Positions 32,600-51,701 of a stretch of 64,000 nucleotides of DNA are shown piece by piece (positions within the stretch are counted from its first letter, which is position 1; each line of letters starts with the position of its first letter). The translations under genes were made by a program, and so were the position numbers. Source of the DNA: a virus; the IMG/VR virus record IMGVR_UViG_3300009130_000011, positions 38,755 to 102,754 of that record. One strand, given 5' to 3'. Under the pieces are notes generated by a model that was not told the DNA's origin, ran no database searches, and was given only the letters and a program-made list of their open reading frames with translations.

Positions 32600-33832
32600 T
32601 TACTTGCTCGGAATCTCCATCAAGCGGAGATCGTCTATAATTTTTTTGTTAAGGTCTGATTCTTTGGCTGAAGGATCAGAAATTAAACTATATATTAACC
32701 CACCAATAAAAGCAAGTGCAAAAATGCCTACAACCACCCACGCTATATTGTTTTTCCAAAAGGAAGGCTTTCGTGGTGAAGGAGGGGGTTTTACAGGCGA
32801 GGGTTTTGGCTTTAAAGGCGGAGGCGAAGGAGGCTCGGGCTTTGGCTCGGGCTTTGGCTCGGGCTTTGGCTCGGGCTTTGGCTCGGGCTTTGGCTCGGGC
32901 TTTGGCTCGGGCTTTGACTCTCCTTCTGTGATCATTTTTTTAACATCTATAACTCCGTAACCCCAATCATTGTCTCTACCTATAGTGCCTTTATCATTGG
33001 TATATTTTAGCAAATGCTCTTTAACTTGAGCTACTGTTTTGCAATCGTTTTTCCCTGTTTCTTTTTCTTGCTTTCTATGTTTGGAGATCATTAGAGCAAT
33101 AACTCCAGCGATAAAGGGGCAAGCCATTGAGGTTCCACTAAGCGATGCATAAGAATTATTCAAAAAAGTGCTAGATATATTAGAGCCGGGCGCTGCCCAG
33201 TCTACTTCTGGACCACGGGAGGAAAAAGAGGATACTCTTCCATATTTGTCATAGGCTGCAACAGCTATAGTAGATTCAAAGGCTGCTGGATAATTTACCC
33301 CGCCAGACCCAGAATTACCAGCCGCGCAAACGACAGGAATGTGCATATCATTGGTTAATTGTTTTATAATTTTTTCCATTTTTGGAGATGGAGTTGAGCC
33401 GCCAAGAGACATAGATATAATATCTGGCTTGAGTCGTTTTGCAGCCTGAAGCGCATTGACTAAACCTTCATAGCTACCTGAACCACTTTTGCTTAAAGCT
33501 TTTATACATATACATTTAGCTTTAGGCGCTACACCTACATAACCTTTTTTATTGTTCTTTGCGCAGATTATTCCTACGCAATGAGTTTGGTGTCCGTTAT
33601 AGTCAAAAATGTCTTCTCCTTGTATGAAATTTTCGCCTTCTATTGCGTTATCTCCTATGTCTTCGTGATCAGGCATGCCTGTATCTATCACGACAATAGT
33701 TACTCCTTCTCCTTGAGTTACTTTCCAAGTGTCTGGAATATTCTGATATTTCAAACTCCAGTCAAGAGATTGAGAAAGCGAAGTGAAGACCTCTTCGACT
33801 TTAAAGTCTGGGAGGAAGGTTTTCTTTTTCAT
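32600..33832 (-). CDS. S8 subtilisin-like serine protease with Pro-rich linker and C-terminal TM helix
   Basis: VIDTG, GHQTHCVG, AAGN, SGTSMACP triad; (KPEP)7; IAWVVVGIFALAFIGGLIY. Confidence 0.93.
   Translation of the reverse strand: MKKKTFLPDFKVEEVFTSLSQSLDWSLKYQNIPDTWKVTQGEGVTIVVIDTGMPDHEDIGDNAIEGENFIQGEDIFDYNGHQTHCVGIICAKNNKKGYVGVAPKAKCICIKALSKSGSGSYEGLVNALQAAKRLKPDIISMSLGGSTPSPKMEKIIKQLTNDMHIPVVCAAGNSGSGGVNYPAAFESTIAVAAYDKYGRVSSFSSRGPEVDWAAPGSNISSTFLNNSYASLSGTSMACPFIAGVIALMISKHRKQEKETGKNDCKTVAQVKEHLLKYTNDKGTIGRDNDWGYGVIDVKKMITEGESKPEPKPEPKPEPKPEPKPEPKPEPKPEPPSPPPLKPKPSPVKPPPSPRKPSFWKNNIAWVVVGIFALAFIGGLIYSLISDPSAKESDLNKKIIDDLRLMEIPSK
32832..32915. repeat. perfect 12-bp tandem repeat x7
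   Basis: (ggctcgggcttt)7, encodes the KPEP linker on the minus strand. Confidence 0.95.
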
Positions 33833-38345: not shown

Positions 38346-38841
38346 TTTTAATACTTTCGTTTATAATTTGATATGCCATTTCTTTTTCGTGCCAATCAAA
38401 CACTTCAACCTTTTTCCCATTTAAATCTTTGTAATGCTGAAAGAAATTAGAACAAATTTTTAAGAATAAAGAGTTTACATCTTCTAGGCATGTATATTTG
38501 TTTACATGACAGGTGGGCGTAGCTAAAATTTTATAATCTTTCATACCATCGTCTTCCATGTCGAGCGCACCTATAGGAGTACACTCTACGAGAGTACCCC
38601 TGTCTATTGGGGAGTGATTGTATACCAAAACATCTAATGCATCTCCGTCTCCTCCAAGCGTATTTGGTATAAACCCGTAACTGCAAGGATACATAAAAGC
38701 AGAGGTTAAGCTTCTGTCATAAAAGAAAACTCCTAACTCGTTGTCGTATTCATACTTTGCGTTAGTGCCTTTAGGTATTTCTATAATACAGTTAATGATT
38801 TTTGGGGATTCTTTATGAATCGGTAAATTATATAAATTCAT
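38332..38841 (-). CDS. ppa: inorganic pyrophosphatase (family I)
   Basis: IEIPKG..KYEYD, YGFIPNT, DGDALDV, DDGMKDYK, FFQHYK. Confidence 0.95.
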   Translation of the reverse strand: MNLYNLPIHKESPKIINCIIEIPKGTNAKYEYDNELGVFFYDRSLTSAFMYPCSYGFIPNTLGGDGDALDVLVYNHSPIDRGTLVECTPIGALDMEDDGMKDYKILATPTCHVNKYTCLEDVNSLFLKICSNFFQHYKDLNGKKVEVFDWHEKEMAYQIINESIKNDSP

Positions 38842-41831: not shown

Positions 41832-42971
41832 TCATTTTTTATTACCAATCCTAGGCAGCAAGCCTGTGGAGGTGAAATGCCCTCTTTTGGCTGCAACAGA
41901 CGAAATTGGCTTGCCAATAATCTCTGAAACTTCTTTGACAGAATATCCTTCTAGGAATAAATCTAGAATTTTTTGGGTTTCTTTTTTTGAATAAGCTGGC
42001 TTTGATTTAACTAAGCAAAAAGAAAGCCTATTCTTTACAGCAAAAGCCACAACTTGCCTTTTGGAGTATTTCCCATTTAAAAACTGCTTAGAAACTTCAT
42101 CAGATGTAAGTATTTTAGCATTTTTAAGTAGAAAAGATTTTAAAAAAGGCTTGTCCTTATCTTGCATGCTACAATATCCACTATCTGTGGAAAAGAAATC
42201 TTTTATCGACTGGTATCCTTTTGAAACGTTTTTAAAAGAATGATCATTAACTACAGATTTATCAAAATGATTCCTTATCTTTTCAAAAACAGTAATTTGA
42301 GTGATGGAAATTGCTTGGCGGGTCACGCCTAATGCCTCTGAGATTTCTTCTTGCTTCATTCCTTTTTCTAGCATAGATAAAACTCTAATTTCTTGATCCG
42401 TAAGAACCCCAGAGTACTCTTTGAGCATTTTTATTAAGTACTCGCATCGAGCATTTCTATCAAAATCTTCGAAAAAAGAATCCTCTTCCCCGTTGAAATC
42501 TACTGCAAGTTCAAAAGAACTTTTGAAGCCATCTTCGGTGTAATGAGTGTTATCTGTCCTTCTTTTTACATAAGATTGATTTGCTATTCTGCTGTATGTC
42601 CAGCGGCAAATGTTTTTTACAAAAGAAAAAGCTAACTTGCGAAAGCCTATGCAAGAGAAATCTCCATTAAATTCATGAATTAACTCATCTCTTTTTTTTA
42701 AGAAAGATAAATTTACTTCACTTACTAATTCCTCATGGCTCAGAAGATGATTCGCCCCCCTATACTTTCCTATAATTTTATTAATATCCTCTTGGTACTC
42801 CTCAAGGAAGGCATCAAATTTCTTAATATGAGCGGGGTGAGCTTGTGGGATAGGCTCTTTTTCTCCATAGCTGGCCTGAATATGCTCTTTTTGGCGGTCT
42901 TTAGTCGTCTTTATCCTGCCGTCAGTATTAATCGTAATATCATCTGGTAAGTAAGAGTCTTGGATCTTCAT
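41832..42971 (-). CDS. sigma70-like factor with extra C-terminal HTH
   Basis: Region-2-like EELVSEVNL...FSFVKN; region 4 LTDQEIRVL..GMKQEEISEALGVTRQAIS; second HTH GYSVKEVSEIIGKPISSV. Confidence 0.65.
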   Translation of the reverse strand: MKIQDSYLPDDITINTDGRIKTTKDRQKEHIQASYGEKEPIPQAHPAHIKKFDAFLEEYQEDINKIIGKYRGANHLLSHEELVSEVNLSFLKKRDELIHEFNGDFSCIGFRKLAFSFVKNICRWTYSRIANQSYVKRRTDNTHYTEDGFKSSFELAVDFNGEEDSFFEDFDRNARCEYLIKMLKEYSGVLTDQEIRVLSMLEKGMKQEEISEALGVTRQAISITQITVFEKIRNHFDKSVVNDHSFKNVSKGYQSIKDFFSTDSGYCSMQDKDKPFLKSFLLKNAKILTSDEVSKQFLNGKYSKRQVVAFAVKNRLSFCLVKSKPAYSKKETQKILDLFLEGYSVKEVSEIIGKPISSVAAKRGHFTSTGLLPRIGNKK

Positions 42972-44071
42972 AGGCCGTTTTTCTGATTAAGGTTTTTTAT
43001 GATTCGAGTAGGAAGGCGATCAGCTTCAAAAAGACGCCGATAAGGCTTTCCGCGCCCAAAAGGACTGGGGTATTCTTCCGACCAGTTTACAAGATGCTTA
43101 GTAGTGCGAAGAAACTTTCGAAGCGTAGCGATTTGCATCCCTAAATACTCCGCAGCTTTAACGCGACAATTAGAATGTCTATCCAGCGCATCCTTAATTT
43201 TTGGAATACGTTCTTGCCACCTCTTTTCCTTCTTAGCTTTGATAGCCTTCTTCATATTAGCCGCGCGTTTAGCTTCAGATTCGGGAGAAAGATTAAAAGG
43301 GCAAAAACCTGCAGTCATCCTTTTCTTCATAGCTTTTTTTTGGGCATCAGAAAGGGCTTTTCTGTCTGGCTTTCGGCATTCGGAAAAAGGTTTTGTTGGT
43401 GGATATTCTTTCTGCCAATCAATAGATGGAAATTTAGCCATAAGTTTATAAATTTTATGCCTACTAATTCCTAGTTCTCTTGCCGCCTTGCATCGATTCC
43501 CGTTGCATTTGACCAGCGCACTTATTAAAGAACTACGAGTCGAATCCATTGCAGCTTTATTCCACTTGACCCACTTGCCATGATATATCATTCCCTCTCT
43601 TTGTTCAAGAGGTAAAATTATGCCCTTTCGGTGTTTGGCAGACCAATTTTCTTTTCCTTTTTTAAAGCCGATTTTAGAAAGGTGTTCGTAGTCTGTAGCA
43701 TTAAAACGATTGCTTTTTTCGGGAGACCTAGGCACCTCTAATTTATAGAGCAAATTATTAGGATTTGGAAATGAGGCGTCCCTTATCTGCTCCCACTGTT
43801 TTATCCCCAGTCGAACATTATTTTTACTTTTATAGTTTTTATGAAACATAAAGCCATGTATGGCTTTGGCTACAGCGGGAGGATCTTGAAAGCTAAGCCT
43901 GTCTTGTAGTAAGCGTTTAGCCTCTTCATAAGATTTTGCTTTTATAAAAACCTTATAATCTTTTTGCGAGCCATTTTTTGAGTGTTCTGTATAATTTATA
44001 TTCCAATATCTATGCGTCGCAAAAGTTTTATTCCGAAATTTTTTTTGAGCGTTAGTCTTTTTTCTTGCCAT
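42968..44071 (-). CDS. basic protein with two Fis-type HTH domains
   Basis: ALVKCNGNRCKAARELGISRHKIYK and ALDRHSNCRVKAAEYLGMQIATLRK; start moved to ATG 44071. Confidence 0.75.
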   Translation of the reverse strand: MARKKTNAQKKFRNKTFATHRYWNINYTEHSKNGSQKDYKVFIKAKSYEEAKRLLQDRLSFQDPPAVAKAIHGFMFHKNYKSKNNVRLGIKQWEQIRDASFPNPNNLLYKLEVPRSPEKSNRFNATDYEHLSKIGFKKGKENWSAKHRKGIILPLEQREGMIYHGKWVKWNKAAMDSTRSSLISALVKCNGNRCKAARELGISRHKIYKLMAKFPSIDWQKEYPPTKPFSECRKPDRKALSDAQKKAMKKRMTAGFCPFNLSPESEAKRAANMKKAIKAKKEKRWQERIPKIKDALDRHSNCRVKAAEYLGMQIATLRKFLRTTKHLVNWSEEYPSPFGRGKPYRRLFEADRLPTRIIKNLNQKNGL

Positions 44072-44078
44072 GGGAGTA

Positions 44079-44107
44079 ATTGTATCATGGCTTAATGAAA
44101 ATGTCAA
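44079..44107 (-). promoter_or_regulatory. sigma70-type promoter, leaderless geometry
   Basis: TTGACA-N17-TACAAT (TGn extension)-N7-ATG(44071). Confidence 0.8.
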
Positions 44108-44653: not shown

Positions 44654-45322
44654 TTAGAACTTTACTTTGATTCCCGCTCCCCAAAAGACGTCGGAATCAG
44701 TTTGAGTCTCTGAATCGTTATAGCTCACATTTGCAAATGCAGTTGCGCTATCAGTGATAGAGCGGCTAGCTGTCGCGGAGATTTCGTAATACTCAACCCC
44801 ATCGTTAGCTGCAAGATCGGTAAGACCAGCGCCAGCCGAAAGATCAAGGTTTACAACATCAAGATCGAAGCTGTGGCCAACTGAAAATGCATATGTATAC
44901 AAGCTTTCATCGAGATTTCTGTATACCGAAGCGCTAGGCGAAAGTAATACATCAAAAGTTCCAGAAACAAATGCCTCTAATTCTGATGGTCCTGCTTCAA
45001 GCTCATAGTGAAGAAGCCCTGCAGCAATAGATAGCGAATCTCCAAACAAAGAAGCTGTCATGCCTGCAGAAATGTCATACTTGTCGTCTCCAGCTTCCAT
45101 GCTTTGGCTAGTAGAAAAGTCTACAAAAGAACTGAAACCAGCTAGGCCAAAATCAAGTCCTAGGTTAGCGGATAAAGCTTCTTGAGAAACTGTTTGTCCA
45201 CGAAAAAACACATCAGACGAGAATCCAAGTCCAACATCTCCTTGAAGCTTAGCTTCTTGGGCGAAGGCGGCGTTAATAATAGACCCTGCTAGGGTCGCGA
45301 GTAATAGTAGTTTTGTTTTCAT
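44654..45322 (-). CDS. outer-membrane beta-barrel, TorF/TIGR02001-like putative porin
   Basis: Sec signal (AFA|QE), SSDVFFRG motif, alternating beta-strands, C-terminal Phe (GIKVKF). Confidence 0.78.
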   Translation of the reverse strand: MKTKLLLLATLAGSIINAAFAQEAKLQGDVGLGFSSDVFFRGQTVSQEALSANLGLDFGLAGFSSFVDFSTSQSMEAGDDKYDISAGMTASLFGDSLSIAAGLLHYELEAGPSELEAFVSGTFDVLLSPSASVYRNLDESLYTYAFSVGHSFDLDVVNLDLSAGAGLTDLAANDGVEYYEISATASRSITDSATAFANVSYNDSETQTDSDVFWGAGIKVKF

Positions 45323-45345
45323 ATTTTAATTTTTGTTTTATGAAA

Positions 45346-45912
45346 TTATTTTATCCTAATCTCCTTCCAATAAACTTGTTTATCATTTACTAAGCTTCTA
45401 ATGTGTCTTTGTTTGGCGCTAAGCTGACTTTTGCCCATCTTGACTTCAATAAAAGTAACTCGCTCATCATCAAATGAAATGTAATCTATCGGCCTTCCTA
45501 AAAATACGCAGTTTTCTGGATCAAACTCAAATTGATCTAAGAAAGGAGCCAATGTCTCCGCAATATTTCCAAGTCTAACTTCACCGCTTTTCTTTTGAGA
45601 TAAAACTTTTTTACGTTGTTCTACTTCTTCTTTTAACTTTTCTTCTGTTTCTTCTAGCTGCTTTTCAAGATCTTTAGAATGAGTTCGCTCGTCTTCTAGA
45701 AATTGCTTTCTAATTTTTGAAACGTTTTCTGATTTTTCTTTTTCAAGTTCTTGGCTCATTACCTCTATTTTGAGGGAGCCAATTTCTTCTTTTAGTTGTT
45801 GTATTAAATCTGTATTAGGTTCAAGCTTTTTATTCTGACGCTTTAATCTGAAGAGGAAAAATAATAATATTATTATAACCCCGAGAAGAAAAAGTTCTAT
45901 AAAAAAATTCAT
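45346..45912 (-). CDS. membrane-anchored Holliday-junction-resolvase-like endonuclease
   Basis: N-terminal TM, coiled coil, GNIAETLAPFL..FLGRPIDYISF..FIEVKMGKSQL. Confidence 0.8.
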   Translation of the reverse strand: MNFFIELFLLGVIIILLFFLFRLKRQNKKLEPNTDLIQQLKEEIGSLKIEVMSQELEKEKSENVSKIRKQFLEDERTHSKDLEKQLEETEEKLKEEVEQRKKVLSQKKSGEVRLGNIAETLAPFLDQFEFDPENCVFLGRPIDYISFDDERVTFIEVKMGKSQLSAKQRHIRSLVNDKQVYWKEIRIK

Positions 45913-47119: not shown

Positions 47120-47365
47120 CTATTTTTTTGTTAATGATATGATCCTGTCGTGCCTAAAAGACCTTACCGCTTTTCTGCCATAACAGTACGCTTTAAACCC
47201 TACATTGCTTCGCTCATCATTTTTGTTTCCAAAGGAGCTGTACAAATCAATCTTTCCTATCTGATATGTCTTAACTTTATTGTCGCTATTTTTATATACT
47301 ACATAGTATCTAGGTTCACTTGAGAGCGATTCTAAAGTTTTTTGTATGTACTTTTTGAGATTCAT
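47120..47365 (-). CDS. stand-alone WYL-like protein
   Basis: AYCYGRKAVRSFRHDRI; start moved to ATG 47365. Confidence 0.6.
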   Translation of the reverse strand: MNLKKYIQKTLESLSSEPRYYVVYKNSDNKVKTYQIGKIDLYSSFGNKNDERSNVGFKAYCYGRKAVRSFRHDRIISLTKK

Positions 47366-47694: not shown

Positions 47695-48966
47695 TCAAGA
47701 CAAAATATCAAAAATCGGTGGCTCCCCATTGGAGACTTTAAATGGCCTTCCGCTGGGTGAGTATGTAATCTTCTCTATGCTTAAGCCCATCGCATGTGCA
47801 ATAGTAGCATTTATAGATGGCACATCAACGCCGTTTTCTTCTACATAATGAGCCCTGTCGTCAGATTTGCCATAAACGAATCCTTCTTTTACGCCTCCTC
47901 CTGCGAATAAAACGCTAAATGCGGAGGGGTGGTGATCTCTGCCGACCCTTCCAGCTTTAACTTCTGGAGTTCTTCCAAACTCACTTGCCACAACGACCAT
48001 TGTATCCGAGAGTAGACCTCTCAGGTTTAAATCTTCTAATAAAGAGCTCAAGCCAGCATCTAAAACGGTACCTCTTGTTTCCATGTTTCCAAAAACATCG
48101 TTATGCATGTCCCAGCCGCCATAAGAAACCTCAACAAATCTAACTTTATTTTCCACCAGCCTCCTTGCTAAAAGACAGCCTTGACCAAAATTATCTCTGC
48201 CATATTTATCTCTAAGCGACTCTGGCTCCTTGCTTAGGTCAAAAGCTTCAAGATCTTTGCTTTTCATTAGGCTAATGGCATTGTCATACAAATCTGAGTA
48301 AGCTCTAACTTGTTTTTGCGGAAAAGACTCTGTAAAATTTTTATTTAATACCCGTGAAGCATCTAGACGCTTGTGATATAAATTTTCTTCAACATATCCA
48401 GACTTTTTTACATTCTGTATGCCTGCATTTGGATTGCCTAGCGGTAATGGGCCATGCTTACTTTCAAAATAGCCTGCGCCTATAATCCCGCTACCCCCGT
48501 TGATTTTTACATTGTCAGGAAGGGTTTTGTTCAGCTTATCGCAAAGTTTACTAATCCAGCTCCCCATGCTTGGGTGAATAATTGTGCCCCTTTTTTGGTA
48601 GCTAGTATGAAGCAAATAGTTTGCTTGTTCGTGAGCTCCTTGATTACTATTAACCGACCTAACTAAAGAGGCAAGGTGCATCTGTTGGGCAGTTTTGGGG
48701 AGCCAATTGCCCAGCTGTATCCCGTCTGCTGAAGTATTTATAGCAGTAGTTTCTCCCATTACATCTTTATTTTCAGGCTTAGGATCGAAGGTGTCTAGAT
48801 GGGTCATGCCTCCCCTCATATTTAGAAAAATAACGTGACGAGCGGTTGGCATTTTTGTTGTTTTAGCCATGAGCTCCGAGCCATAAACCAGAGCGCTGAC
48901 GCCAAGATAGCTCCTAGCTATTTCTTTTGCAAATTGCCTGCGAGATAATTCATCTAACATTTTCAT
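47695..48966 (-). CDS. DUF1501 family protein with Tat signal
   Basis: SRRQF, IFLNMRGGMTHLDTFDPKP, FGQGCLLARRLVE, GWDMH, SEFGRTP, GRDHHP. Confidence 0.92.
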   Translation of the reverse strand: MKMLDELSRRQFAKEIARSYLGVSALVYGSELMAKTTKMPTARHVIFLNMRGGMTHLDTFDPKPENKDVMGETTAINTSADGIQLGNWLPKTAQQMHLASLVRSVNSNQGAHEQANYLLHTSYQKRGTIIHPSMGSWISKLCDKLNKTLPDNVKINGGSGIIGAGYFESKHGPLPLGNPNAGIQNVKKSGYVEENLYHKRLDASRVLNKNFTESFPQKQVRAYSDLYDNAISLMKSKDLEAFDLSKEPESLRDKYGRDNFGQGCLLARRLVENKVRFVEVSYGGWDMHNDVFGNMETRGTVLDAGLSSLLEDLNLRGLLSDTMVVVASEFGRTPEVKAGRVGRDHHPSAFSVLFAGGGVKEGFVYGKSDDRAHYVEENGVDVPSINATIAHAMGLSIEKITYSPSGRPFKVSNGEPPIFDILS

Positions 48967-48977
48967 GGTATAACTTT

Positions 48978-51005
48978 CTATTTAATAAATATAAATTCGT
49001 GTGCATTTAAAAGAATCCAAGAGACGTGTTTAAATCCATCCTTTTCATCGACATATTGTTTTAGTAATGTCGATTCGTTCGACATAGGTTTTCTTGAAAG
49101 AATTGAGAGAAAAGCATTTTCCACTTGTTTTTGTTTACTTTTTTCTGATTGCATTTGAACTATAAAGTCGGCATCTTTTTTATTTAAGATATTGGATTCG
49201 ACAAACCCGTTTAGCAAATTTAAAACTTGCGTAGTATTAGGCTCTGCGTTGCTGTTGTCTATCTGTTCTTTATCGCTGCCTCCAAACTGTCTAATTAAAT
49301 GGCCTCCCGGAGCAGGATAAGGTAGGTAGCTACTACGCACCAAGCTTCTGTCTTTGAACTTTTTATTATTAGCTTCGTAAGTGCTTAAAATCGCTAGGAG
49401 ATTCCTGTTCCCAGCATTTTCTTCTGCAAGTTGTTTGAAGTCTGCATAAATTTCTTCTCCTGTCATGTCTTTATATCGATCATAAATTACTGAATAGTCT
49501 TGCTGGTTGTATAAATAAACCCTGCCTGCGGAGTCTATGTCATTATAAACTAAAGTAACTAAAGAATCCCACAACTGCTCTCCAGTCATTCTTCTCAGGA
49601 TTGGGCCTTCGAAATTATATTCTTCAAGGCTTTTGTAGTCTTGTTTTTTTGCAGACCTTTGAAATAGTTTGGTATTTAAAAGAATTCTTTCGTATTCCCT
49701 TAAATCGTAATTCACTGAAACTAATAGACGCTCTAGATATTTCATTAGCTTTTGATTGCTTGCTACCGTATCGTCCATCATAGTGTCTATCGGTTCTATT
49801 AGCCCTGCGCCAAAAATTCTTTTCCAGATTCTGTTTGCAATCATGGTGGTGAATCTGGGGTTATCTTTGCTTGTTAACCAATCTGCAAAAACTTTTCTAC
49901 TACTACCTTGTGTGGTTTCTGTAGGTTTTGGAGTGAAAATTGCCTTGGCGAAAACAGTATCGCCCGGCTTGCCATCGTCCTCCGCAAAATCTCTAGGAAG
50001 TTTTATTGTGCCTGTTCCATTGTTTTCAATCCCTGATTGAATAGAATCTCTCACTACATTTCTCCAATTGTTAAAGAGGCCTGCGTTTGCATCCCCATCC
50101 GCATTAATTGCTCGGCTAAGTTCGCCTATTGATTTGCCTTGATTTCTAAGTCTAACGTTTCCAATGCCCGAAGTGAATGCAGTCATTTCGTAGAATTGGC
50201 GCTGGCTCCACTTGTCAAATGGGTGATTATGACACATCGCGCATTCAAGCCTAGTCCCCAAAAAGATTCTTATTGTATGTGAGAGATTATCTTCCTGCAT
50301 GCCTCGATCTCGCAGGTAATAACTTATAGCTTCTCCTCCATCCAGAAGCCTTCCGCTGCTTCCAATTAACTCCCTAACCATTTGATCGTAAGGTTTTTTA
50401 GATTCAATTGAATCTCTGAGCCATTTCCTGTATACCGAACCTACGTTAATGTTGGTTCCGTTGATTCTATCTTTCACCCTAAGCATGTCGCTCCACCAAT
50501 TCATTTGGTGATTTGTATATCCAGATGAATTTAATAGCTTTTGTATCAATTTATCTTTTTTAGAAGAGTCTCTATCGTTAACAAAAGAAAGTAATTCGTC
50601 TTGTGTTGGTATCCTTCCTGCGACCGTAAGATAAAGCCTTCTTGCATAAGCATAATCATCTAAAGGCTTAGTTTTATATAAGCGTTTGCTCCTTAAATTT
50701 TGCTCAATAAGCTCATCGATATATGCTGCATAGCCATTTAAGGTTCTTTGGTCTAGGGGTATTTTTGAGGGTGGGATGCTGCTGTATCTATTTTCCGAGT
50801 GATAAAGTTCAATTTGTTTTTGACTATCAATCGTAAGCGCTTCTATTTTAAATCTAAATTGCTGTAAATCTTTATCCCTAGCAATTCTAACATGAGTTTC
50901 ATTTGCATCCAATATTTTCGCCTCAAGAGAGTTGCCATCCTTGAAATAAAGGGTGGAGCCAAAACAAAAAGTAGTGGTAAGGAAGAAAAATAATAAAGCC
51001 TTCAT
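48978..51005 (-). CDS. DUF1549/DUF1553 domain secreted protein
   Basis: Signal peptide; RRLYLTVAGRIPT, FLGTRLECAMCHNHPFD, NRIWKRIFGAGLIEP, RRMTGEQLWDS. Confidence 0.92.
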   Translation of the reverse strand: MKALLFFFLTTTFCFGSTLYFKDGNSLEAKILDANETHVRIARDKDLQQFRFKIEALTIDSQKQIELYHSENRYSSIPPSKIPLDQRTLNGYAAYIDELIEQNLRSKRLYKTKPLDDYAYARRLYLTVAGRIPTQDELLSFVNDRDSSKKDKLIQKLLNSSGYTNHQMNWWSDMLRVKDRINGTNINVGSVYRKWLRDSIESKKPYDQMVRELIGSSGRLLDGGEAISYYLRDRGMQEDNLSHTIRIFLGTRLECAMCHNHPFDKWSQRQFYEMTAFTSGIGNVRLRNQGKSIGELSRAINADGDANAGLFNNWRNVVRDSIQSGIENNGTGTIKLPRDFAEDDGKPGDTVFAKAIFTPKPTETTQGSSRKVFADWLTSKDNPRFTTMIANRIWKRIFGAGLIEPIDTMMDDTVASNQKLMKYLERLLVSVNYDLREYERILLNTKLFQRSAKKQDYKSLEEYNFEGPILRRMTGEQLWDSLVTLVYNDIDSAGRVYLYNQQDYSVIYDRYKDMTGEEIYADFKQLAEENAGNRNLLAILSTYEANNKKFKDRSLVRSSYLPYPAPGGHLIRQFGGSDKEQIDNSNAEPNTTQVLNLLNGFVESNILNKKDADFIVQMQSEKSKQKQVENAFLSILSRKPMSNESTLLKQYVDEKDGFKHVSWILLNAHEFIFIK

Positions 51006-51030: not shown

Positions 51031-51428
51031 TGGTGGAGGTGGCGGGAGTTGAACCCGCGTCCTAATCGCTTTCAAGCAATCACTTCTACAAGCTTAGTTA
51101 GTTTCTTTTTGAGTTGTTGATACTAACATCGAACTTCCTGTTTCAATTATTTGCAGTTTATTAACAGGTAAACCTTTTCTGTTTTGCAGATCAATGACCC
51201 CTTATCCCTTTTATCTGCGTCAAAAGGTAAGAGGTTAGCAGGTTAAGCTGCTAAGGCGAGCTTACGGCTCTTGAAACCGAAACGCTTCGCAGCGATGCGG
51301 TTCTTGAAACCGAGAGCTCTAACACGGTTTTTAGCGCCATGTAAAGCTTTGCACATTGATAACGAAGCCAAGTGCATCTCCGGCTTGCGGTGAAAGAATC
51401 CAACGCTAGTCGAATCCAGAACACCCCC
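51031..51428 (-). ncRNA. ssrA: tmRNA
   Basis: 5' GGGGGTG..GGATTCGAC; 3' GGACGCGGGTTCAACTCCCGCCACCTCCACCA; G3.U70 pair; internal tag ORF ending LALAA-stop. Confidence 0.95.
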
Positions 51429-51452
51429 ATAAATTTTTCAAAGAACTATAGT

Positions 51453-51701
51453 TTATACACTAAAATTTGTAATTCTGAGCCTTATTTGCTCAAGATTTCC
51501 ACTCCTTACAAGAGTTCCGCTTAGGAATATGCAATCTTTGCCAAAAATACTATGCGGCTTTGCTATAACCCCTAGTACGCTCCCTTCTTTACTCTTAAAC
51601 TCAAGCATGTCTTGCTCAAGGCTGAGAATTGACGAGCCTTCGTAGAAATCTCCAATCATATCCTCACAATCACAGTCTAAAACTTCCGCACTGCAATTCA
51701 T
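51453..51701 (-). CDS. hypothetical protein
   Basis: Array ORF. Confidence 0.55.
   Translation of the reverse strand: MNCSAEVLDCDCEDMIGDFYEGSSILSLEQDMLEFKSKEGSVLGVIAKPHSIFGKDCIFLSGTLVRSGNLEQIRLRITNFSV

Follow-up and report, generated by a model that had tools for sequence, protein, structure and literature searches.

The DNA analysed here is a stretch of 64,000 nt, hereafter the window, which covers positions 38,755 to 102,754 of the 102.7-kb virus record IMGVR_UViG_3300009130_000011. The record is about 76% complete, i.e. about 24% of the genome is missing from it. The window contains a tmRNA gene, for which the initial annotation had proposed an unusually long and strongly basic tag. Tags of tmRNAs are usually regarded as short degradation signals defined by the host, and the tmRNAs of phages as plain copies that keep the ribosomes free. 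The locus raises the question whether such a long basic tag is real, whether the gene belongs to the phage or to a bacterial host, and what a cationic tag body could mean for the proteins which receive it.

The tmRNA gene was identified by ARAGORN and by the Rfam family RF00023 as a one-piece gene of 398 nt at window positions 51031-51428 on the minus strand. The RF00023 match scored 135.1 bits (gathering score 47, E 1e-52) and covered the complete model (1-374), and in the Rfam alignment the tag region contained about 60 nt in excess of the consensus. The MFE z-score of the RNA was -3.8. Its CCA end is encoded, and the tRNA-like domain has a T-arm and an acceptor stem of 7 bp, the 5' strand of which (51422..51428, minus strand) includes the G3 of the G3:U70 pair. 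This alanine identity pair was kept as G:U in 30/30 family members (alignment columns 3/466). The pairs of the acceptor and T-stems covaried among the 30 homologues, the acceptor neighbours of G3:U70 changing GC/CG and UA/CG. RNAalifold predicted 72 pairs for the 30 members, and compensatory double changes were observed in 34 of the 72. Helix 5 (H5, 51235..51254, minus strand), located by the Rfam alignment, carries the stop codon of the tag in its loop, and the corresponding columns 208-229 of alignment A2 covary as well (AU/GC 14/12). Four features of RF00023 membership were present in the window tmRNA, namely the full-length model match, the tRNA-like domain, the U-A ruler and an ORF with a hydrophobic end and with its stop in the H5 loop. 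In three other members of the family (L213, L231 and L243) the T-arm was altered: a GAATCGAAG-type loop region replaced GGTTCAACT, with compensating changes in the stem (A2 columns 444-461). The T-loop of these three RNAs is unusual for a tmRNA.

The region upstream of the gene (51429..51473, minus strand) was examined by comparison of 28 distinct family members and by a consensus scan. A leader of approx. 18 nt (51429-51446), with a consensus close to GTTCTTTGAAAAATTTAT, abuts the mature 5' end in nearly every member of the family, and its conservation is independent of the sequence further upstream (it has the same position in L207-L246). In many members a TTGAC(A/T) box and an extended -10-like GTGTA/TATA box could be observed about 30 nt upstream; the window has GTGTA / TATAAA approx. 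32 nt upstream and an ATTACA-17-TATAGT arrangement. The conserved leader together with the promoter-like boxes suggests that the tmRNA gene probably has its own promoter. The leader itself may be a determinant for RNase P or other processing, or it may belong to the promoter or the region of the start.

The tag ORF is located at 51243..51338 on the minus strand. It begins with a GGC resume codon (51336-51338), consists of 31 codons with 10 K/R and no D/E (net charge +10), and ends with LALAA followed by a TAA stop codon (51243-51245). The tag called by ARAGORN was identical to the one that had been read in the initial annotation, where the resume codon had been deduced. The assignment of GGC was borne out by several features. 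GGC sits on the consensus resume codon of RF00023, approx. 11 nt past PK1, and it is preceded by the frame-setting dinucleotide U86-A87 (51342..51343, minus strand), located 4 nt upstream. In the alignment of 30 homologues U86, A87 and G91-G92-C93 were invariant. The spacing from A87 to GGC is exactly 4 nt, as in E. coli, where the near-universal A86 acts as a ruler that places the frame 4 nt downstream (Miller et al., PMC2481249). The GGC frame was open to the stop codon in the H5 loop in about 40 homologues, with every indel a multiple of three, and an N-terminal motif G-x-K-x-R-V was common to the tag classes described below. No conservation was found in the other two frames.

These observations bear on the alternative that translation really resumes at a more 3' codon, e.g. 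an internal GCU or GCG, which would make the tag a short and ordinary one. This idea draws on the unreliability of the automatic calls in the family. ARAGORN missed three clear homologous tmRNAs (131-133 bits in Rfam), and in the relatives with acidic tags it set the resume codon at an internal Ala codon, 13 codons too far 3' (the loci which posed problems for ARAGORN were L102, L103, L104, L084, L249, L251 and L252). However, a resume codon in a 3' position is hardly compatible with an invariant ruler exactly 4 nt before an invariant GGC, with a frame which stays open in every homologue, or with an N-terminal motif shared across classes. We consider the short tag extremely improbable, and the long tag read from GGC at 51338 stands. 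The missed genes and the misplaced resume codon also mean that tags of this type are under-reported in phage annotation. In sequence, the window tag has the C-terminal Leu-Ala-Ala carboxylate of the ClpXP-type ssrA degron.

The next question is whether the gene belongs to the phage. The record contains 156 ORFs, nearly all on one strand and tightly packed, with uniform GC content, and among their products are a large terminase TerL and a DNA ligase of phage type. A TerL about 70% identical to that of the record is encoded by more than 595 viral contigs, and a full-length tmRNA was found in five of the longer TerL relatives. The lineage is uncultured, with a size of approx. 100-200 kb; among cultured phages the best TerL identity was about 27%, thus there is no cultured relative from which host or function could be transferred. 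A 23-base motif of the tmRNA scaffold occurred in 39 viral contigs, as against one contig in the genomes of 185,579 prokaryote species. When the C-terminal half of the tag was used in degenerate and exact scans of the viral contigs no match was obtained, whereas the scaffold motif did match, and the blastn matches of the tmRNA among GenBank phages were confined to the T-arm and the acceptor end, in tmRNAs that are not related to it.

The single genome contig with the motif was JAYQMT010000004.1 (L246-L248), 210.8 kb in length and part of a 'Cellvibrionales' MAG. It carries the tmRNA and a TerL that is 64% identical, the TerL match being split by two in-frame stops, one TGA and one TAG. Since it encodes the same TerL, this contig is a phage contig too. 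Probably a phage genome was binned with the MAG, and the bin possibly gives a hint on the host.

The gene could nevertheless be the host's own ssrA, included in a 'viral' record through a flank of host DNA or as the site where a prophage attaches. Integration at ssrA is classic, and the two genes just 3' of the tmRNA belong, according to Pfam, to cellular PVC-type families. The first, a PSCyt2/PSD1 gene (48978-51005, minus strand), adjoins the 3' side of the tmRNA, and the second is a DUF1501 gene (47695-48966, minus strand); they form a cellular-type pair at 47695..51005. In two other phage contigs (L228 and L242), however, this pair is absent from the spot and homologues of 47122-47309 and 45267-45644 directly follow the tmRNA, which indicates that a cellular, Verrucomicrobiales-like module was inserted at the 3' end of the tmRNA in the window phage and its sister. 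The genes flanking the tmRNA on both sides have homologues beside the tmRNA in other phage contigs. No PF00589 integrase match was found in the record, the 3' 80 nt of the tmRNA occurred only once in the 102.7 kb, with no att-like repeat, and no terminal repeat was present either. The co-oriented, tightly packed genes with uniform GC, the scaffold on 39 viral contigs with the lone genome match carrying a phage TerL, and the quite different tags of Verrucomicrobiota and Planctomycetota also speak against a host gene. On the basis of TerL, the related viral tmRNAs, the distribution of the scaffold, the synteny and the lack of integrase and att repeat the host origin was rejected, and practically no weight can be given to it. 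The initial annotation, which had taken the tag for that of a phage, is in line with this; the scaffold was found on no bacterial chromosome searched. The window tmRNA is encoded by the phage and is not part of a host flank. The gene is intact and conserved, its reading frame is defined, and its long cationic tag, likewise conserved, leads into a hydrophobic end of host type.

As for the host, the nearest cellular homologues of the DUF1501 protein were found in freshwater Verrucomicrobiales, e.g. Prosthecobacter and Brevifollis, with 46-52% identity. The phage ppa gene, used as a second host marker, had no relative among the prokaryote genome contigs, hence the host assignment depends on one acquired module. 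From this we infer the order Verrucomicrobiales as a candidate host. The tags in Verrucomicrobiales genomes were ANSNELALAA or close variants, the last five residues of which are the LALAA of the phage tag; in this respect the degron is kept in the phage, as had been proposed. A further 29 genomes spread evenly across Verrucomicrobiota were included, and their tags were 8-10 aa long (e.g. ANEEFALAA) with one of 18 aa. In total, no basic tag was observed in 41 Verrucomicrobiota and 2 Planctomycetota genomes (the latter with tags of 9 and 12 aa). Thus the comparison with PVC hosts which the initial annotation had called for gave tags of 8-12 aa and one of 18, and none that was equally long and basic.

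The same comparison with related phages gave a different picture. Tags were read in about 40 homologues from the resume codon defined by the ruler, and three classes could be distinguished in the same scaffold. The majority belonged to a short basic class of 20-21 aa (net charge 0 to +6), starting with G-(N/K)-K-x-R-V and ending with LALAA, FALAA or VAMAA. The long basic class of 31-33 aa (net +10 to +12) was found in eight contigs, the window included. An acidic class of 34-41 aa (net -10 to -11) ending with MVA or MAA was present in seven contigs, among them the sister phage. In alignment A2 the long basic tag corresponds to the 20-aa tag with 11 codons inserted in the middle. The aligned acidic members (L230, L235 and L209) have an extra insertion of approx. 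30 nt between PK2 and PK3 (columns 313-346) which is absent in the members with basic tags. As this insertion is common to all aligned acidic tmRNAs, two separate features are linked in the acidic cassette.

The sister phage is especially informative. Its TerL is 95% and its UvdE 97% identical to those of the window phage, and 16.7 kb are collinear at 86% identity, yet it carries the acidic cassette and its tag region is only 28% identical. When the identity was calculated per 50 nt it fell to 32-60% across 51351-51152 only, with 78-98% in both flanks. The segment replaced in the sister (51152..51351, minus strand, approx. 200 nt) comprises the tag ORF, H5, PK2 and the site of the 30-nt insertion. 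In the opposite case, the phage G013 has a TerL about 70% identical and yet a tmRNA 92% identical to that of the window. A near TerL with a foreign tag in one phage and a distant TerL with a near tmRNA in the other indicate that the tag module has a history of its own, by transfer or by replacement, apart from the rest of the genome. Judged from these alignments, the tag body behaves as an exchangeable cassette within a constant scaffold. In addition, the sister and six other contigs combine this scaffold with an acidic tag of 34-41 aa, which means that the lineage does not strictly need a positively charged tag.

The internal organization of the long basic tag was examined next. The 12-mer TCGGTTTCAAGA, said in the initial annotation to be repeated 33 nt apart, occurs exactly twice in the 64-kb window with this spacing, at 51302..51313 (copy 1) and 51269..51280 (copy 2), both exact matches on the minus strand. 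The chance expectation is 0.02, and 0/100 shuffles contained two matches. The two copies are the 5' and 3' arms, respectively, of a 62-nt hairpin within the tag ORF (51258..51319, minus strand; ORF nt 20-81), which has a GNRA-type apical loop and contains the 33-nt expansion by which the ORF exceeds those of the 20-aa tags. In six distinct sequences of the 31-aa class RNAalifold gave 21 pairs with 120/126 cells paired, and 4 pairs had compensatory changes. The members with short tags were gapped at the 33-nt expansion in alignment A2; they contain a smaller ORF-internal hairpin at the same place, which covaries between subtypes. The direct repeat of the 12-mer can be explained by the two nested, nearly identical helices of the hairpin. 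The three K(N/S)R units described earlier have to be read accordingly: an expanded, internally symmetrical hairpin within the ORF accounts for them better than three tandem peptide repeats do. The tandem-repeat model was rejected as a poor fit, the self-similarity of the DNA at offset 33 being only 40% overall, and the '33-nt duplication' is likewise better viewed as an expansion of the hairpin.

Since the additional 11 codons are a conserved RNA hairpin too, part of the sequence pattern may be RNA-driven. The 33-nt expansion may then have been selected mainly as RNA, for its stability, as a protein-binding site or for the control of resumption, and the cationic peptide would be largely a by-product. 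The GNRA-type-loop hairpin in all six sequences, the covarying hairpin of the short tags and the explanation of the 12-mer by the hairpin arms all favour this, as does the lack of an amphipathic-helix signal in the basic tag, whose moment of 0.30 was below the mean of the shuffles (0.44). (The basic tag as an amphipathic helix was rejected on this value; the acidic tag does give such a signal, with a moment of 0.52 that is reached by about 1.6% of the shuffles.) However, the variation in the 31-aa class does not follow the pattern of a constraint on the RNA alone. The variable columns by codon position 1/2/3 were 7/4/18 overall and 2/3/9 inside the stems, while an RNA-only constraint would accept wobble transitions equally at all codon positions. 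This excess of variation in the third position, also in paired sites, indicates selection on the peptide. In six related sequences, the pairs of which are not independent, pS was 0.38 and pN 0.07, i.e. pN/pS was 0.19. K/R richness is moreover found in the short tags and in the unpaired N-terminal part. Selection mainly on the RNA seems to us rather unlikely. These results agree with the view that the cationic body is a genuine conserved segment. As far as the comparison of homologues can tell, peptide and RNA structure are both under constraint in the 31-aa tag, and selection on the RNA does not exclude selection on the peptide.

Taken together, we are fairly confident that the window encodes a functional one-piece phage tmRNA that adds a 31-residue cationic tail on a host-type end, and that the tail is an exchangeable, lineage-specific cassette. 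The working of the RNA can be outlined as follows. It would be transcribed from its own promoter with the short conserved leader and, G3:U70 being kept, it would be charged by the host AlaRS. It would then pair with the host SmpB and rescue ribosomes stalled in infection. Translation would resume at GGC, and the rescued chains would receive the 31-residue tail with its cationic body (+10) and hydrophobic LALAA end, the latter presumably still read by Clp-type proteases of the host. The cationic body probably arose from a mildly basic 20-aa tag by the 33-nt expansion of the ORF-internal hairpin.

A search for SmpB (PF01668) in the window record, itself 76% complete, and in four relatives, two of them with a completeness of 93% or more, gave no match, and no ClpP was found in the record or in the relatives searched. 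From this lack of SmpB and ClpP in the phages we infer a dependence on the SmpB, AlaRS and proteases of the host, with which the RNA would be active in trans-translation. The missing part of the record could hold a phage gene for SmpB, a Clp ATPase or a protease. The lack of a phage SmpB would also suit a tmRNA which acts mainly as a decoy, titrating host SmpB or blocking the trans-translation of the host, with an irrelevant tag. There is a precedent for this in the tmRNA of phage DS6A, which is reduced to the tRNA-like domain and for which SmpB titration was proposed (PMC4131195). In the window tmRNA, however, the mRNA-like domain is complete, with the ruler, the H5 stop and all pseudoknot helices conserved with covariation, and the tag ORF is under selection at the peptide level. 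We regard a decoy role as very unlikely.

What the cationic body would do to the tagged products is a more tentative matter. The cationic segment may plausibly reroute, delay or relocalise these products, as suggested in the initial annotation. That the tag body alters the fate of tagged proteins, by the choice of adaptor or protease or by binding to anionic partners, is possible, although we would not put it forward as the probable outcome. The same caution applies to the broader proposal that the mRNA-like domain is an exchangeable effector cassette, in which polycationic, short-basic or polyanionic amphipathic bodies would programme the fate of rescued polypeptides in infection; we see this, too, as a tentative reading. 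Should the cassette reading be true, the outcomes may include another protease or adaptor, hand-over to the Clp/Hsp100 ATPase of the lineage, or sequestration on nucleic acid or membrane, and the turnover of cassettes between sister phages would reflect host adaptation or an arms race. The ATPase in question is a Clp/Hsp100-type AAA_2 protein of 819-838 aa, present in 3/5 relatives (L254, at G011:80607-83072; L253 in G016; L255 in G018), 15-70 kb from the tmRNA; one of its bearers has the same 31-aa tag. No AAA_2 Clp ATPase was found in the parts present of the window record or of the sister, and glycosyltransferases occupy the syntenic spot in the window record. Since the ATPase is distant from the tmRNA in the relatives and absent here, a phage-owned reader of the tag is not supported for the window genome, which is 76% complete.

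Two other loci of the window may be mentioned here. At 32600-33832 (minus strand) the phage encodes a 410-aa subtilase (Peptidase_S8, E 9e-47), which has an acidic repeat rich in proline at its C-terminus. Two adjacent 379-aa paralogues with HTH domains (Fis-type HTH_8; LuxR/sigma-70 region 4) are encoded at 41832-44107 (minus strand), and are possible transcription regulators of the phage.

The window tmRNA can be compared with known systems on several levels. It is like E. coli SsrA (tag ANDENYALAA) in G3:U70, CCA, PK1, the U-A ruler, the xLAA end, the stop in the H5 loop and the downstream pseudoknots. Unlike E. coli SsrA, it is phage-encoded, its resume codon is GGC (Gly), its tag is three times longer and is +10 instead of acidic, and it has the 62-nt ORF-internal hairpin and no linked smpB. 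With the Verrucomicrobiales tmRNAs it shares the RNA family and the LALAA end of the tag, but Verrucomicrobiota tags start with Ala, are 8-10 aa long (one 18) and neutral to acidic, and the phage scaffold differs from the Verrucomicrobiota tmRNA in that the scaffold motif is absent from bacterial genomes. A 'works like' lead comes from Mycoplasma. Gur and Sauer in 2008 reportedly observed that long Mycoplasma ssrA tags switched the protease from ClpXP to Lon, a precedent for a long divergent tag body changing the protease that reads it. The Mycoplasma tag, however, belongs to a bacterial tmRNA, is not polycationic and ends differently from the window tag.

Phage tmRNAs as such are already known. 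They were described in mycobacteriophages and Bacillus phage G (PMC4131195) and in huge phages (PMC7162821), and a tmRNA occurs in 2.3% of isolate phage genomes, with a two-piece gene in Melnitz (PMC9004378). Streptomyces phages of approx. 131 kb have annotated short tags, e.g. ANSKFAFALAA (GenBank). The tmRNAs of the Streptomyces phages, the cluster C mycobacteriophages (Bxz1 etc.) and Bacillus phage G are like that of the window in being one-piece, mostly without a phage smpB, and carried by large virulent phages. Unlike the window tag, however, their annotated tags are short and host-like, and the similarity of these tmRNAs to the window tmRNA is limited to the T-arm. The Methylophilales phage Melnitz and the pelagimyophages (Buchholz et al. 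2022, PMC9004378) are a parallel from aquatic habitats, with a lineage-wide tmRNA which is not of the host's tmRNA type. The Melnitz tmRNA, however, is a circularly permuted, two-piece molecule whose tag is short and which is linked to a glutamine riboswitch, while the window tmRNA is one-piece with a long charged tag. In full-text literature searches phage tmRNAs were found described, but nothing on the charge, length or exchange of their tags, an absence which is no proof in itself. What appears to be new is the long charged tag architecture.

Against the usual picture of short tags and plain phage copies, the family analysed here is a phage-only tmRNA lineage with a canonical scaffold, in which the tags are 2-4 times as long as those of the candidate host, have extreme opposite charges, are conserved as peptides and change places between phages that are nearly identical. 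If the choice of protease or adaptor, or the localisation, is altered by the tag body, these phages would use the tag itself to reprogramme the protein quality control of bacteria. The tags found in nature (10 aa in the host; 20, 31 and 34-41 aa in the phages) form a series that offers a panel for finding out which parts of an ssrA tag decide the fate of the tagged protein.

Finally, a different type of tmRNA was encountered, only in the phages found via the UvdE homologue (L111-L113). These phages, up to 163 kb in size, are unrelated to the window phage; they carry circularly permuted two-piece tmRNAs with the tag ADESLALAA, which adjoin a tRNA-Glu(UUC).
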